From the NCBI RefSeq assembly GCF_003334385.1, contig NZ_QOWN01000053.1: a stretch of 31,720 bases of DNA; one strand, given 5' to 3'. Source of the stretch: Escherichia coli (GTDB lineage: Bacteria > Pseudomonadota > Gammaproteobacteria > Enterobacterales > Enterobacteriaceae). A program made the translations under genes and the position numbers. The notes under the pieces are model-generated. The model did not search any database and was not told the DNA's origin. It saw only the letters and a list, made by a program, of their open reading frames with translations. Of the stretch, positions 15,462 through 16,911 are shown one piece after another (position 1 is the first letter of the stretch; each line of letters opens with the position of its first letter).

Positions 15462-15661
15462 TATTCCTCCCGGCAGGGATAGTGTATGCAATCAAGATAA
15501 GGTGCGGGCTGACGTCAGTCATGGACAAGGGTTCAGAAACAGGAGGATGACTACAGCCCGCAATACGAAAAAGACCATACAGTTGCGCAGAGTGATTACT
15601 ATCGGGTATTATTCGCCAGCTGAAAATTGATCACTTCACGTTTTGTTGTTTATTCCTTGCC

Positions 15662-15691
15662 ACCCGCGCTTCCCGGCGCGGGCTTTTTTTT
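15662..15691 (+). terminator. Strong plus-strand intrinsic terminator, antisense to the late operon
   Basis: CCCGCGC-ttcccg-GCGCGGG stem-loop followed by an 8-T run. Confidence 0.6.
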
Positions 15692-15695
15692 ATCC

Positions 15696-16420
15696 AACAA
15701 GAAAGCCCCTCCGGAGAGGGGCTGGAGAGTAGCGCTATGTACCGTTCATGCATGGTGCAGGGTGCCTCCCGGTGAGTTCAGTATCAGCACCTGAACCCGC
15801 ACCAGAAAGGATAAGGGGTGTGACCAAACACCTGTCGCTGATATGCCCCTCCGCACAGGGGGATTCACCATGCCATATTTTTTTAACAAACTTCCCGCTG
15901 GCCAGACAATAATCGCCAGCCTGAATTGTGAGTAACGTGGCATTTTACGGGAAAACTGTTTTCTGCAGTAAAAAGGCCCGCCGGAGCGAGCCTGGAAGGA
16001 TAGCGGTCATGTGATGCCGGTTTCCCGGTAACTCAGCATCGGTATCTGAGTCAACGTTTTCTCTACTGGGTCACTTCCGATACGTTCCGCCTTCCGGCAG
16101 ACTTTCATCACGTCAGAAAATATAGCACCCTGAGTAACAGGACAGTACTCAGAATTCAGGAAACTGTGACACATCCTGCACAGAAAAGCCCCTCCGGAGA
16201 GGGGCTGAAGTATAGCCTAATTTCTGTCTGTCGCATGGTGCCAGGTGCCTCCCGGTAAATTCAGCCTGGCTACTGAATTTGCATGTTCGCTGGATCATAC
16301 ACTTTGCCAGATGCCCCGCCGCTGAGGGGGATTCACCACGCGATGCAATTTTTAACAAATTCTCCGGCAGCCAGACAATCATCAAGCTGTGGAATTGTGA
16401 GGTATTTAAAAATTTCGCAG
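15696..16420. repeat. Diverged direct duplication of a module of about 230 bp, plus a third partial copy, in the Q-to-nanS-p non-coding region
   Basis: Copy A about 15696-15935 and copy B about 16183-16420 share AAAAGCCCCTCCGGAGAGGGGCT, GGTGCCTCCCGGT(G/A)A(G/A)TTCAG, GGGGGATTCACCA and CCAGACAAT blocks; partial copy at about 15965-16045. On the minus strand each hairpin is followed by T-rich sequence. Confidence 0.65.
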
Positions 16421-16726
16421 CCTCTTGCCACCCGCTTTTCACAAAAATCGTATGTAGAAGGCCGCAGCGTAACTATCACTGATGAATTCAGGACACCCAG
16501 AGGCTACGGCTCAGTTTGGATTGTGGCGGCCGGAATCGAACCAGCTCCCATCGGTGCGCTGCCGATTACAATACGCGCGGCGATCCGCTACATGACTAGT
16601 ATTTTCACAGTCGCCTGTCTGCTAGCTCGCCATTGAGCTTCACCACAACGATAAGAGCACTGCGCACACCTTTCACCAATTCCACGAGGTCTGCGGGTTC
16701 AATGCTCTTACCTGTTGTGCAAACAA

Positions 16727-16758
16727 AAAGCCCCGACATTTCTGCCGAGGCCTTTACC
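16727..16758 (-). terminator. Putative tR'-like terminator downstream of the Q-position genes
   Basis: Minus strand reads CCTCGGC-agaaat-GTCGGGG followed by CTTTTTGTTTG (stem with G-U pairs), about 150 nt downstream of a promoter-like TTGCTT-17-TATGTT. Confidence 0.3.
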
Positions 16759-16911
16759 TAATCTAGCCAGTATGCCGATCCTAAATATTATCGACGACCG
16801 AGGTAAATCAGGATTTCTCTTTCGCTTCTCAGTGCGCTTTTGCTCCGAGCATACACAAAACATACTACTTTCATTTCTCGAAAGCAACGCATTTACAAAA
16901 AATATTTTGCA

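Follow-up and report, generated by a model that had tools for sequence, protein, structure and literature searches.

The hairpin in the N leader of phage lambda is processed by RNase III, the DIS of HIV-1 is a kissing-loop dimerisation site, and the pRNA of phi29 has loop-loop contacts. Decoding tRNAs follow their own norm, with a near-universal U33 and a purine at position 37. The late leaders of phages 933W, Sp5, L, ST64T, and Sf6 carry tRNA genes (ileZ-argN-argO in 933W and Sp5; PMC8022706 for L and Sf6). The bacterial Y RNAs, YrlA of Salmonella and Mycobacterium and Yrn1 of Deinococcus, are tRNA mimics of ~100-130 nt with D and T arms; Y RNAs with such tRNA-like domains are non-decoding, and some are phage-encoded (PMC4201824). 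In lambdoid prophages, a pair of convergent sRNAs next to an esterase gene is a general feature (Tree et al. 2014, PMC4104026). Anti-sRNAs of the AsxR/AgvB group are sponges that sequester a core sRNA. In Stx2 phages, the STnc100 sRNA sits directly after stx2B, and the order in Sakai Sp5 is stx2B, 75 nt, STnc100, convergent AsxR, and nanS-p. STnc100 is the Hfq-bound sRNA EcOnc27 (PMC12711010) and is related to PasD (bioRxiv 10.64898/2026.05.13.724894; PMC8550237). All eleven copies in EDL933 have transcriptome reads, with one confirmed by Northern blot (PMC5331693).

The locus described here, positions 15500-16911 of a 31,720-nt stretch of Escherichia coli DNA (the window), is a row of small-RNA genes, mostly of known prophage families, between a Q gene and an esterase gene. 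The identity, order, and strand of its parts are established (Table 1). What is new in the region is a tRNA-shaped RNA of ~130 nt; most of the region is ordinary, and annotations can now be given to its STnc100 genes, convergent sRNA gene, and tR'-like terminator.

Small-RNA genes between Q and nanS-p

The flanking genes set the direction of the late operon as the minus strand, late transcription following the strand of Q. Read 5' to 3' on this strand, the order is the Q gene, an unmapped pR', the tR'-like terminator, CACAACA with the P1 hairpin, the tRNA-shaped RNA, a conserved spacer, three tandem STnc100 genes, the convergent sRNA gene on the opposite strand, and the nanS-p leader and gene. 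Q found no match in NCBIfam or Pfam, and PHROGs gave its assignment. In genomes with the identical sequence, the nanS-p gene is annotated as "SASA family carbohydrate esterase" or DUF6645. An earlier note, written from the letters alone, had placed a late regulatory and cargo locus without toxin genes here. This is supported: the slot is the cargo ("moron") one between the Q-like antiterminator gene and nanS-p. The same 1.6 kb was found, 99.7-100% identical, in phage PhiR5_2 as well as 17 complete E. coli genomes; the repeats are therefore not an assembly artefact, an outcome for which the note had allowed.

Table 1. Positions of the features discussed in the text
Feature	Position	Strand	Evidence or description
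nanS-p-type esterase gene	13488..15491	minus	PHROG 143, E=4.7e-299
nanS-p 5' leader	15492..15619	minus	alignable with the esterase-gene leader in Sp5, O157 strain 2571, and EPEC
Candidate ~70-nt small RNA, convergent with STnc100 copy C	15620..15691	plus	terminator and position; presumed start
STnc100 copy C	15693..15902	minus	RF02076, 129.9 bits, full length
Copy C terminator	15723..15704	minus	terminator scan
Degenerate STnc100-like copy B	15967..16142	minus	RF02076, 29.6 bits, E=3.6e-4, below gathering score
Copy B terminator, intact	15993..15974	minus	terminator scan
STnc100 copy A	16178..16371	minus	RF02076, 138.7 bits (gathering score 47), full length 1-206
Copy A own intrinsic terminator	16206..16187	minus	terminator scan
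Spacer homologous to HK75/CUS-3 late-leader "boundary sequence"	16372..16519	minus	~92% identity
tRNA-shaped RNA, complete, ~130 nt	16520..16648	minus	own covariance model, RNAalifold, covariation
Self-complementary hexamer ACUAGU, apical loop of long hairpin	16595..16600	minus	candidate kissing-loop site
P1 hairpin, directly 5' of tRNA-shaped RNA	16650..16712	minus	13-bp stem GGUAAGAGCAUUG / CAGUGCUCUUAUC, fold z=-3.2
CACAACA single-stranded motif, directly 5' of P1	16713..16719	minus	conserved among homologues
tR'-like intrinsic terminator downstream of Q	16719..16755	minus	13-bp stem, then UUUUUGUUUG; fold z=-3.1
Q-like late antiterminator gene	16912..17538	minus	PHROG 753 "anti-termination protein Q-like", E=3.5e-68

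As the earlier note had stated, Stx A and B genes are lacking: tblastn of Stx2A/B against the whole window gave a best E of 0.77, so that stxA and stxB, which lie between Q or the tRNAs and nanS-p in Stx-converting cargo loci, do not do so here. ORFs within 15500-16911 are all of 117 aa or less. ARAGORN called no tRNA or tmRNA across the whole window, in agreement with the claim that no intact tRNA is present, and called no tRNA at 17 homologous loci of the tRNA-shaped element; allowing introns and relaxed scoring added only implausible calls, a tRNA-Lys with a 77-nt intron and a tRNA-Arg(gcg). There was no sign of stx or tRNA genes once present here and then lost. The order of STnc100, convergent sRNA, and nanS-p is that of the segment directly downstream of stx2B in Sp5, which would fit the whole region being the remnant of an Stx-phage cargo locus after loss of its stx and tRNA genes. 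Such a history is very doubtful in view of the missing stx remnant, a Q type and leader unlike those of Sp5, a leader part homologous to the non-Stx phages HK75 and CUS-3, and the many non-Stx lambdoid prophages for which the same sRNA layout is reported (PMC4104026). Calling the locus remodelled, as had been done, also overstated the case. Sense STnc100, convergent small RNA, and nanS-p form the ordinary published lambdoid-prophage layout, seen in Sakai Sp5, and the A-B-C tandem of STnc100 recurs in unrelated prophages.

The direct duplication of about 230 bp noticed earlier is real and consists of two full STnc100 copies, with direct-repeat families D1-D4 at a spacing of 468-483 nt. These repeats are thus not anonymous modules but gene copies of a known sRNA family. 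The Rfam scan that had been recommended returned copies A and C as full matches above the 47-bit family threshold; the third, partial copy also exists, as copy B, which by this threshold falls outside the family. Copies A and C share 68.7% identity, and copy B is 49-51% identical to both; the three are as diverged mutually (49-69% identity) as from the Sp5 copy. Copy C is 71.7% identical to the EPEC E2348/69 copy adjoining nanS-p, and its 3' two-thirds resemble the EPEC PasD2-locus copy. Like the prophage Hfq-binding sRNAs STnc100/EcOnc27/sRNA103/PasD1/PasD2, the copies lie in a lambdoid late region downstream of pR' and sense to the operon; as in Sp5 and EPEC, STnc100 stands directly upstream of nanS-p, and each copy has an intrinsic terminator. 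The locus differs from STnc100 elsewhere in holding three in tandem with the middle one below the family threshold, although the tandem layout itself is not unique: pairs ~470 nt apart also occur in phage vB_EcoS-640R1 and E. coli HH97. The scan found no promoters belonging to the individual copies, and candidates picked by eye were sub-threshold. By analogy with Hfq binding by, or expression from, other copies in EDL933, Sakai, and EPEC, copies A and C are probably Hfq-binding sRNA genes.

All three minus-strand terminators of the earlier note were recovered, and the tR'-like hairpin adds a fourth. The plus-strand terminator was recovered as well, as a stem at 15663-15682 followed by T8. The scan returned 11 terminator-like sites in total against 1.9 expected. 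Together with the Rfam matches, this supports the suggestion that the region holds both duplicated terminators and small structured RNAs.

The plus-strand terminator, with its U8 tail, would end the candidate convergent sRNA. Promoter-like boxes TTGCGC (15583-15588) and TATTAT (15607-15612), separated by an 18-nt spacer, precede it; this candidate, found by eye, is sub-threshold, and the scan found no promoter. The -10 box and body are conserved in O157:H7 strain 2571 and EPEC E2348/69, and the segment shows 80-85% conservation in 1237 E. coli genomes. In the locus alignment it occupies the position of AsxR in Sakai Sp5. As with the AsxR and AgvB anti-sRNAs, the candidate is a short gene on the strand opposite the late operon, placed directly upstream of nanS-p and facing the STnc100 terminator tail-to-tail; it converges with the sense sRNA in the interval from the cargo to the conserved esterase ORF. 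It likewise has a strong terminator and U tail, and its flanks can be aligned with the Sp5 AsxR locus. The body, however, is unrelated. Its 5' part is GU-rich (GUUUUGUUGUUUAUU) rather than CA-rich, it does not present the 51-60 nt with a ~42-nt 3' region common to EcOnc01-03, and the Rfam AsxR and AgvB models gave no match to the region at E<=10. A relation to OmrA/B, for which the gathering score is 40, was set aside as unproven: the O157 sequence scores 26.1 bits and that of the window 16.6 bits.

Upstream, the tR'-like terminator stands at the place equivalent to an annotated tR' of HK75, which lies directly 5' of homologous sequence. Consensus scanning and manual reading gave no convincing pR' site. 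The heptamer preceding P1 occurs as CA(C/T)AACA in nearly all context-A homologues, and CACAACA has been quoted as a GcvB-binding consensus (PMC4104026). Most of ~45 distinct homologues retain 12-13 of the 13 pairs of P1, with compensatory changes (loci L020, L024, and L079), and its cap is hypervariable at 29 to 83 nt. The spacer shares ~92% identity with HK75 33663-33976 and with many E. coli prophages, and its homologue is annotated as bsq3 in the CUS-3 record. It holds the left half of a second terminator hairpin (16417-16431), and the scan gave a weak terminator-like site. In CUS-3, UTI89, and IME10, an alternative insert of 215 nt lies between the same stem halves; it has no significant fold (z=-0.5) and no Rfam match.

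A conserved, covarying tRNA-shaped RNA

The earlier note had seen a tRNA-like fragment at 16520-16600. Its likeness to tRNA stands, but it is not a fragment: it belongs to a complete conserved structure. This RNA comprises an 8-bp acceptor stem, a D arm, a short stem bearing a long covarying hairpin, a 5-bp arm with a 7-nt loop (CAGCGCA), and a T arm (UUCGAUU), and its parts follow in the order acceptor (5' strand), D arm, extra arm, T arm, and acceptor (3' strand). Its own covariance model scored the element at 158.4 bits (E=5e-39) and real tRNAs at no more than 26 bits, a gap of over 130 bits. The Rfam tRNA model RF00005 gave 26.5 bits, short of its gathering score of 29, and 74 nt stand where the anticodon region belongs. 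RNAalifold independently recovered the same fold.

Across 78 distinct homologues, the helix cells are 94.8% paired, whereas slid controls reach 29-46%; compensatory change is seen at 22 of the 35 base pairs. Helix cells hold 62 G.U and 3 A.C combinations, which fixes the sense strand. Loops and junctions are invariant and stems vary; GG in the D loop and UUCGAUU or UUCGACU in the T loop vary little or not at all, while the inserted long hairpin has been rebuilt with wholly different sequences. The main versions of the 7-nt loop are CAGCGCA (52), CAUCGCA (12), and UAGCGCA (5). Members are mostly close kin, with a mean column identity of 90% in alignment A2, so part of the covariation signal comes from a few lineages that branch deeply. 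Because the D-arm sequence was fixed in the first locus search, the D arm draws its independent evidence from the BLAST- and 3'-anchored sets that came later. The results show the tRNA-shaped RNA to be a family that is conserved, covarying, and specific to one strand, with covariation support as strong as that of many curated RNA families.

The element shares with canonical tRNAs, including those of phage late leaders, the acceptor, D, and T arms and the elbow nucleotides of the D and T loops (G18 G19, T-loop UUCRANY). It occupies the same slot as the phage tRNAs and, by analogy, would likewise be co-transcribed with the late genes. It differs from them in its length (~130 vs 73-95 nt), an extra 10-bp hairpin with an 18-nt loop, the 8-bp acceptor stem, A8, A33 (with one U exception), and an invariant C37. 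Some lineages have CCA 3' of the acceptor stem, and others lack it. Descent from argN, argO, or ileZ of Stx phages was rejected for want of any similarity. So was a tmRNA, a class that joins tRNA-like ends to pseudoknots and an internal tag reading frame: ARAGORN -m finds nothing, RF00023 scores 20.2 bits against 47 on HK75, and the element is too short. Among the Y RNAs, Yrn1 resembles the N-leader variants described below, in which the acceptor stem likewise runs into a long terminal helix. The arms of YrlA are permuted (T, closed acceptor stem-loop, D), with its 5' and 3' ends in a Ro-binding stem, whereas the element has the natural tRNA order, and membership of the YrlA/Y-RNA group was ruled out on this basis (PMC4201824). 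By inspection, GGUGAAG replaces the Ro-binding motif GNCGAAN0-1G of Y RNAs. No link to an rsr (Ro60/TROVE) gene, next to which YrlA-type RNAs are encoded, was seen among the annotated neighbours of seven loci. Rfam has no family for the element, and no description of it came up when the literature was searched by sequence string and by keyword; the family appears to be undescribed.

All 78 sequences have a self-complementary hexamer in the apical loop of the long hairpin, and five versions of it occur: ACUAGU (34), UCGCGA (19), UCUAGA (17), GCUAGC (5), and UCUGGA (3), the last self-complementary as RNA only, through G.U. No other 6-column window is self-complementary throughout the set; two at junctions, both largely conserved (alignment columns 75 and 76), reach 94% and 97%. 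A self-complementary loop kept by covariation is what a kissing-loop site would present, and the pattern suggests dimerisation of the RNA. As in HIV-1 DIS and the phi29 pRNA contacts, six self-complementary bases, flanked by purines, are exposed in a hairpin loop, and they change among lineages yet remain self-complementary. The differences are that the loop has 18-20 nt rather than 9 nt, and that the carrier of this candidate dimer contact is tRNA-shaped.

Distribution and genomic contexts

The tRNA-shaped RNA is present in ~3% of complete E. coli genomes (175/5426) and in ~90 sequenced phages, which include HK75 and phages of the P22-like, Skate-like, and Pantoea groups. Many copies are more than 90% identical, and homologues in Pantoea and Salmonella phages retain the fold at 71-76% identity. 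A scan of species-representative genomes gave one match, on a "Cellvibrionaceae MAG" contig identical to HK75-type phage DNA. This contig is most likely a binning contaminant and so says nothing about host range. Existing annotation of the element is never correct, being blank, spurious proteins, or a 58-nt "tRNA-Ser".

Four contexts were found. The element lies directly after tR' in the window and HK75, between two terminators in the interval from Q to the holin gene, atop a lambda-type N-leader stem between nutL and N, or, in Skate-like Salmonella phages, behind its own promoter (TTGACA-17-TAGATT) and antisense to tail genes. It is followed by a real tRNA-Met gene in two phages of the Skate-like type. 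These contexts argue that the element is an RNA gene complete in itself. Its annotated neighbours, taken from seven loci, are Q, holin, N, cI, and tail genes. Where it lies in the N leader, in E. coli C1, BIS08P22, and locus L112, the lower stem is that of the lambda RNase III hairpin (GGCUUUGGGGUGUG / CACACCACCAAAGC), and the element sits on this stem, between nutL and the N start codon; the element of the window, in contrast, lies in the late leader. The apex of the lambda N leader scored at most 6.7 bits and was ruled out as a degenerate family member.

Proposed mechanism and competing explanations

We consider it probable that the region serves a non-Stx lambdoid prophage as leader and cargo slot of its late operon, with RNA genes in place of protein cargo, and that it works as follows. 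In a lysogen without Q, pR' transcripts would halt at tR', and the three sRNA terminators would act as further barriers ahead of nanS-p and lysis. The STnc100 copies and the convergent sRNA would have promoters of their own and, through Hfq, act on mRNAs or sRNAs of host and prophage. After induction, Q-modified RNA polymerase would pass all four terminators. The tRNA-shaped RNA would then be co-transcribed and cut from the leader by tRNA-processing enzymes, with RNase P acting at its 5' side. In other phages, where the element lies in the N leader, the extended stem could instead be cut by RNase III. Once released, the ~130-nt RNA would keep its tRNA elbow, pair with a second copy through the palindromic apical loop, and act in trans on a host tRNA-binding factor, with no part in decoding. 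More tentatively, and with somewhat less than even confidence, we propose that the element may be a new class of phage RNA, a non-decoding tRNA mimic whose extra arm carries a palindromic loop joining two molecules. It would travel as a self-contained cassette among the leaders of antiterminated operons (pR'-late and pL-N) and stand-alone sites, be excised by tRNA or RNase III processing of the host, and act in trans on a host tRNA-recognising factor, perhaps as its decoy or titrator in lytic growth or lysogeny.

The slot itself invites another account. Real tRNAs fill it in relatives (ileZ-argN-argO in Sp5, tRNA-Met/Ile/Arg at loci L090-L092, and the genes of phages L and Sf6), ARAGORN rejects the element, and the high identity of many copies could reflect recent spread by phage recombination, so that a decaying tRNA pseudogene would merely appear conserved. 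Two-sided changes that preserve pairs and a hairpin rebuilt with different sequences are not what decay would leave, nor are invariant loops and junctions among variable stems; the four unrelated contexts, the intact fold in distant Pantoea and Salmonella phages, and the lack of resemblance to argN, argO, or ileZ make this very improbable. A working tRNA, probably tRNA-Arg with anticodon GCG or UCG and an extra arm between the D and anticodon arms, would suit a slot where phages keep rare-codon Arg tRNAs. The arm at 16564..16548 has anticodon-arm dimensions and is followed by a 4-nt variable loop and the T arm, relaxed ARAGORN places its tRNA-Arg(gcg) on this 3' part, and the 7-nt loop NA(G/U)CGCA could be an unusual anticodon loop. 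Its main variable position is G or U, either giving an Arg anticodon, and one sequence has U-G at the two preceding positions. Decoding is nonetheless quite improbable for an RNA with A at position 33, C at 37, and A rather than U at 8, no consistently encoded CCA, a sub-threshold Rfam tRNA score, and a 57-nt arm at position 26, for which we know of no precedent among decoding tRNAs.

The element could instead serve in cis only, as a processing or insulator module whose tRNA-shaped mark recruits RNase P and severs the nut/qut-proximal leader from the downstream mRNA, much as the RNase III hairpin does in the lambda N leader. The element stands in for exactly the apical part of that hairpin in E. 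coli C1, BIS08P22, and L112, where the lower stem, nutL, and the N ribosome-binding site are retained, and in lambdoid phages it always lies within the leader of an antiterminated operon. We regard a purely cis role as unlikely, however, for a plain RNase P substrate would need no invariant 7-nt loop, invariant junctions, or covarying palindromic loop, and in Skate-like phages the element forms a unit apart from its neighbours, on the opposite strand and under a promoter of its own. Action as DNA, either as a recombination "boundary sequence" or as a palindromic operator for a dimeric protein, would agree with the Casjens-type boundary sequences annotated on both sides of the homologous place in CUS-3, with the alternative insert found there between the same stem halves, and with the perfect DNA palindromes formed by four of the five hexamer versions. 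UCUGGA is no DNA palindrome and yet self-complementary as RNA, the excess of G.U over A.C is strand-specific and sensible for RNA only, and five covarying helices form a cloverleaf, all of which renders a DNA element extremely improbable.

The covariance model and the 78 distinct sequences can serve as the start of an Rfam-type family. Its position atop a lambda-type N-leader stem gives the element an experimental handle within a very well-understood regulatory system. If our proposal is true, this would be an unusual tRNA-shaped RNA built for dimerisation. A functional tRNA mimic of this kind would be a new player in phage-host conflicts over tRNA, which include anticodon nucleases, RNA repair, and translation control.

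Organization of the region between the Q-like gene and nanS-p

The minus strand of the window is the direction of the late operon, and the parts of the region are read from 16911 to 15492 on that strand except where another strand is given. The Q-like ORF had no match in NCBIfam or Pfam. The earlier note had described the region as lacking stx and any callable tRNA. Both statements held, as Sakai Stx2A/B gave a best tblastn E-value of 0.77 against the window, and ARAGORN called 0 tRNA and 0 tmRNA in it. Only short, overlapping ORFs were present in the region. A repeat finder recovered the duplicated module of that note as blocks spaced 468-483 nt apart, along with a three-copy family surrounding terminator hairpins. 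The proposed third partial copy proved to be a degenerate STnc100 match, found at a relaxed threshold. A terminator scan returned 11 sites, versus 1.9 expected from shuffles, including the three minus-strand and the single plus-strand terminators noted before. Seventeen independent complete E. coli genomes and the isolated phage PhiR5_2 carry the whole 1.6 kb at 99.7-100% identity, so the repeats are real and not the assembly artefact the note had asked about. The earlier observation is real, and its bulk is accounted for by known prophage sRNA biology.

Features of the region and of the neighboring prophage (window coordinates)
Feature	Coordinates	Strand	Evidence
C4 antisense RNA beside IsrK Hfq-binding RNA	20009-20196	-	Rfam gathering level, 66 and 69.2 bits, respectively
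Antirepressor-like ORF, 223 aa	19284-19955	-	
Q-like antiterminator ORF	17538..16912	-	PHROG 753, E=3.5e-68
Leader terminator	16755..16719	-	13-bp stem, U-rich tail, z=-3.1
tRNA-shaped RNA, ~130 nt	16648..16520	-	covariance model, 158.4 bits, E=5e-39
Apical-loop hexamer	16600..16595	-	
Junction stretch GCGCGUA	~16570-16576	-	
Direct repeat D6, two copies	16424-16440; 15656-15672	-	88% identical
STnc100 (RF02076) copy A, full length	16371..16178	-	Rfam gathering threshold, 138.7 bits
Degenerate STnc100 copy B, between A and C	16142..15967	-	relaxed Rfam threshold, 29.6 bits, E=3.6e-4
STnc100 (RF02076) copy C, full length	15902..15693	-	Rfam gathering threshold, 129.9 bits
Terminators of copies A, B and C	16206-16187; 15993-15974; 15723-15704	-	terminator scan
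Candidate convergent sRNA, ~70 nt	about 15620-15691	+	terminator, AsxR position, conserved body
Plus-strand terminator	15663-15682, then T8	+	terminator scan
nanS-p-type esterase ORF	15491..13488	-	PHROG 143; SASA-family esterase or DUF6645 in identical genomes

Each STnc100 copy is closed by one minus-strand terminator. In EDL933, transcriptome reads were obtained from 11 of 11 STnc100 copies, one of them Northern-confirmed (PMC5331693). STnc100 overlaps EcOnc27/sRNA103, an Hfq-bound sRNA encoded just 3' of stx2B (PMC12711010; PMC12370729), and a 2026 preprint links it to the EPEC RIL-seq sRNAs PasD1/PasD2, whose loci lie near Q and a sialic-acid esterase gene (bioRxiv 10.64898/2026.05.13.724894). 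The order in Sakai Sp5 was checked and runs from stx2B through 75 nt, STnc100 (207.7 bits) and the adjoining convergent AsxR to nanS-p. Copies A and C share only 68.7% identity, about the distance that separates either from the Sp5 copy; they form an old paralogue arrangement rather than a fresh duplication. Two full copies ~470 nt apart also occur in phage vB_EcoS-640R1 and E. coli HH97, preceded there by genuine tRNA genes, so the repeat array as such is ordinary. The array is bracketed by the direct repeat D6 (minus-strand GCGGGUGGCAAG), one copy of which corresponds to the second leader terminator, in truncated form, and the other to part of the terminator of the convergent sRNA. Recombination at D6 may have brought the array into an HK75-type leader.

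According to Tree et al. (2014), the moron site downstream of PR' contains "convergent sRNA pairs", in which the anti-sRNAs AsxR and AgvB are short, antisense to the late operon and located between cargo and a conserved esterase ORF (PMC4104026). The plus-strand terminator of the window stands tail-to-tail with that of copy C, which is the position of AsxR in Sp5. The flanks of the two loci can be aligned, whereas the body of the candidate sRNA is dissimilar, and the Rfam AsxR and AgvB models gave 0 matches in the window at E<=10. The body and a TATTAT -10-like hexamer are kept in O157:H7 strain 2571 and EPEC E2348/69, and 1237 of 5426 E. coli genomes carry the 209-bp segment at 80-85% identity. 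From position and conservation, the candidate is read as a putative different allele at the anti-sRNA position. The OmrA/B model aligned over its full length in the strain 2571 locus (L095 1303-1391; 26.1 bits, E=0.011) and scored 16.6 bits on window 15586-15691(+); as this resemblance is weak against a gathering score of 40, the name was not applied. A GU-rich stretch of the candidate, GUUUUGUUGUUUAUU, resembles a GcvB-like seed, not an anti-GcvB one. Elsewhere in the prophage, a C4/IsrK pair lies directly upstream of an antirepressor-like ORF, reminiscent of the c4-ant module of P1/P7 immI but here within a lambdoid prophage.

A conserved tRNA-shaped RNA with a self-complementary loop

What the earlier note had called a tRNA-like "fragment" is instead a 130-nt unit with intact arms that is conserved and covaries. 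The Rfam tRNA model aligned over 16647..16521(-) with acceptor, D and T arms intact, scoring 26.5 bits, just below the gathering score, with 74 nt in place of the expected 18-nt anticodon region. A structure of six helices was drawn by eye from variants, and RNAalifold gave the same fold independently. It comprises an 8-bp acceptor stem; a D arm with a 4-bp stem and 6-nt loop; an extra arm, in which a 3-4-bp stem is joined by an asymmetric conserved junction (AUA / GCGCGUA) to a 9-10-bp hairpin whose loop has 18-20 nt; a 5-bp arm with the nearly invariant 7-nt loop NA(G/U)CGCA, followed by a 4-nt linker; and a T arm with a 5-bp stem and the loop UUCGAUU or UUCGACU. The acceptor and T stems thus measure 8 + 5 bp (13 bp stacked), not 7 + 5, a geometry otherwise typical of bacterial tRNA-Sec. 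The eighth acceptor pair covaries (U-A 32, G-C 27, A-U 12).

Covariation was assessed on 78 distinct sequences aligned with a covariance model built in this analysis. Standard pairs filled 94.8% of pair cells, compared with 29-46% when partners were slid by 1-3 columns, and 22 of 35 pairs showed pair-keeping changes on both sides. None of 500 shuffles reached any observed measure, and smaller sequence sets agreed. Across lineages, wholly different sequences rebuild the same long hairpin. A caveat applies to D-arm covariation, as the pattern used to collect the first loci fixed this arm; in later sets, collected with other anchors or BLAST, the D arm varies and one compensatory D-stem change was seen. 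G.U occupied 62 helix cells versus only 3 for A.C, which identifies the window's minus strand as the functional one and favors RNA over DNA as the conserved molecule. Real tRNAs reach at most 26 bits under the model that recognizes the window copy, and ARAGORN called a tRNA in 0 of 17 homologues tested.

The apical-loop hexamer of the long hairpin is self-complementary in all 78 sequences, as ACUAGU (34), UCGCGA (19), UCUAGA (17), GCUAGC (5) or UCUGGA (3), and no other six-column window behaves in this way. Its outer and central positions vary in concert, and UCUGGA, which is no DNA palindrome, is self-complementary as RNA via two G.U pairs. Windows at alignment columns 75 and 76 are 94% and 97% self-complementary, respectively. 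They fall in the nearly invariant junction stretch 3' of the long hairpin (CGCGCG/GCGCGU type, columns 75-81), and because this hardly varies, its self-complementarity supports no conclusion. Since a palindrome of six bases cannot pair with itself within one molecule, a kissing contact between two RNA copies is the simplest reading of the hexamer; judged from the sequences, we give dimerization through this loop an even chance. The analysis shows a structured RNA that is conserved and strand-specific, retains the tRNA elbow and has a self-complementary loop; very probably it represents a functional structured RNA family.

Leaders and other genomic contexts

BLAST hits to the element came from 92 phage records and from 175 of the 5426 complete E. 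coli genomes, with ~200 further loci contributed by pattern scans of IMG/VR and metagenomes. It is never properly annotated, being left blank (as in RefSeq E. coli genomes) or labeled as spurious proteins ('polyubiquitin-A' in ON470589/ON470594, 'hypothetical protein' in PV340546) or as a 58-nt 'tRNA-Ser' (PQ186186).

In context A (the window, HK75 and many prophages), tR' is followed by CA(C/T)AACA, the hairpin P1 and the element. A strong intrinsic terminator lies just downstream of Q in the window. From its final bases onward the sequence is ~92% identical to the HK75 late leader, the homology beginning where the annotated tR' of HK75 ends; pR' could not be placed by consensus. P1, immediately 5' of the element, has a 13-bp stem that keeps 12-13 pairs in context-A homologues, with compensatory changes among them; its cap is hypervariable (29-83 nt). 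The single-stranded CA(C/T)AACA just 5' of P1 (16713-16719(-)) is conserved in these homologues. It equals CACAACA, the GcvB-binding consensus quoted for the anti-sRNA AgvB (PMC4104026), and on this match a 5' leader freed by RNase P could serve as a GcvB sponge. In phage CUS-3 (L003 2570-2800), an unrelated insert of ~215 nt replaces the tRNA-shaped body between the stem halves GUGGUGAA ... CCGCCACAAC; it is also present in UTI89, RS218-type prophages and phages IME10 and Huey, and gave no significant fold and 0 Rfam matches. Unrelated inserts between the same halves mark this stem as a swap point for cassettes.

In context B (E. coli C1, P22-like BIS08P22 and ~45 viral contigs), the element separates nutL from N. 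Aligned with the lambda N leader, it takes the place of the apical ~90 nt of the hairpin, while the lower stem GGCUUUGGGGUGUG / CACACCACCAAAGC, the upstream box A/box B and the downstream N ribosome-binding site are kept. In lambda, this stem is the RNase III site controlling N translation. The lambda apex itself was rejected as a family member (<=6.7 bits). One IMG/VR contig (L112, IMGVR_UViG_2579779116_000016, about 6800-7000) carries the element in an N leader whose nutL and N start codon region are those of lambda itself, providing a natural near-isogenic counterpart of lambda for experiments. In context C, a large contig group, the element is flanked by two near-identical terminators and located between Q and the holin-endolysin-spanin cassette.

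In Skate-like Salmonella siphophages, P1 and the element stand alone, preceded by a conserved promoter-like TTGACA-17-TAGATT and on the opposite strand to the tail genes at either side, and two relatives have a real tRNA-Met after the element. Pantoea phage PdC23 also carries it. Lambdoid phages therefore always have the element within an antiterminated operon's leader, and outside this group it forms a gene of its own; its behavior is that of a mobile, self-contained RNA cassette. A 9.7-kb contig labeled 'Cellvibrionaceae MAG' (L084, JAUVQU010000080.1), with Q, pR', tR', the tRNA-shaped RNA and a holin gene, is essentially identical to an HK75-type enterobacterial phage late region and is probably a binning contaminant.

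Identity and possible role of the tRNA-shaped RNA

Rfam 15 held 0 families matching the element, and literature searches by sequence strings and keywords found no description of it; it is apparently an undescribed, well-supported tRNA-like RNA family. The Stx-phage tRNAs ileZ, argN and argO showed no similarity to it, and a tmRNA was rejected by ARAGORN and Rfam. YrlA has a permuted order of T, closed acceptor and D (PMC4201824), whereas the element keeps the natural tRNA order and is therefore not a YrlA-type Y RNA; no Ro-binding motif was seen in it on inspection. A decoding tRNA is unlikely given that the 7-nt loop carries A33 (with one U exception) and an invariant C37, and position 8 is A. 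A tRNA-Arg with an extra arm is kept as a minor rival because G and U alternate at the position equivalent to the wobble base, which gives two arginine anticodons. The main rival, under which the element is purely a cis-acting processing device, seems improbable to us. A trans-acting tRNA mimic is the scenario we put forward, tentatively and at somewhat less than even likelihood.

In the prophage state, tR' would stop pR' transcripts, and the three sRNA terminators would further guard nanS-p and the lysis genes. Meanwhile, the STnc100 copies and the convergent sRNA would be independently expressed and act via Hfq, as their homologues do. Upon induction, Q-modified polymerase would read through, and RNase P and 3' processing, or RNase III in the N-leader variants, would excise the tRNA-shaped RNA. 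The excised RNA may then accumulate stably, dimerize by its loop and engage a host tRNA-binding factor.
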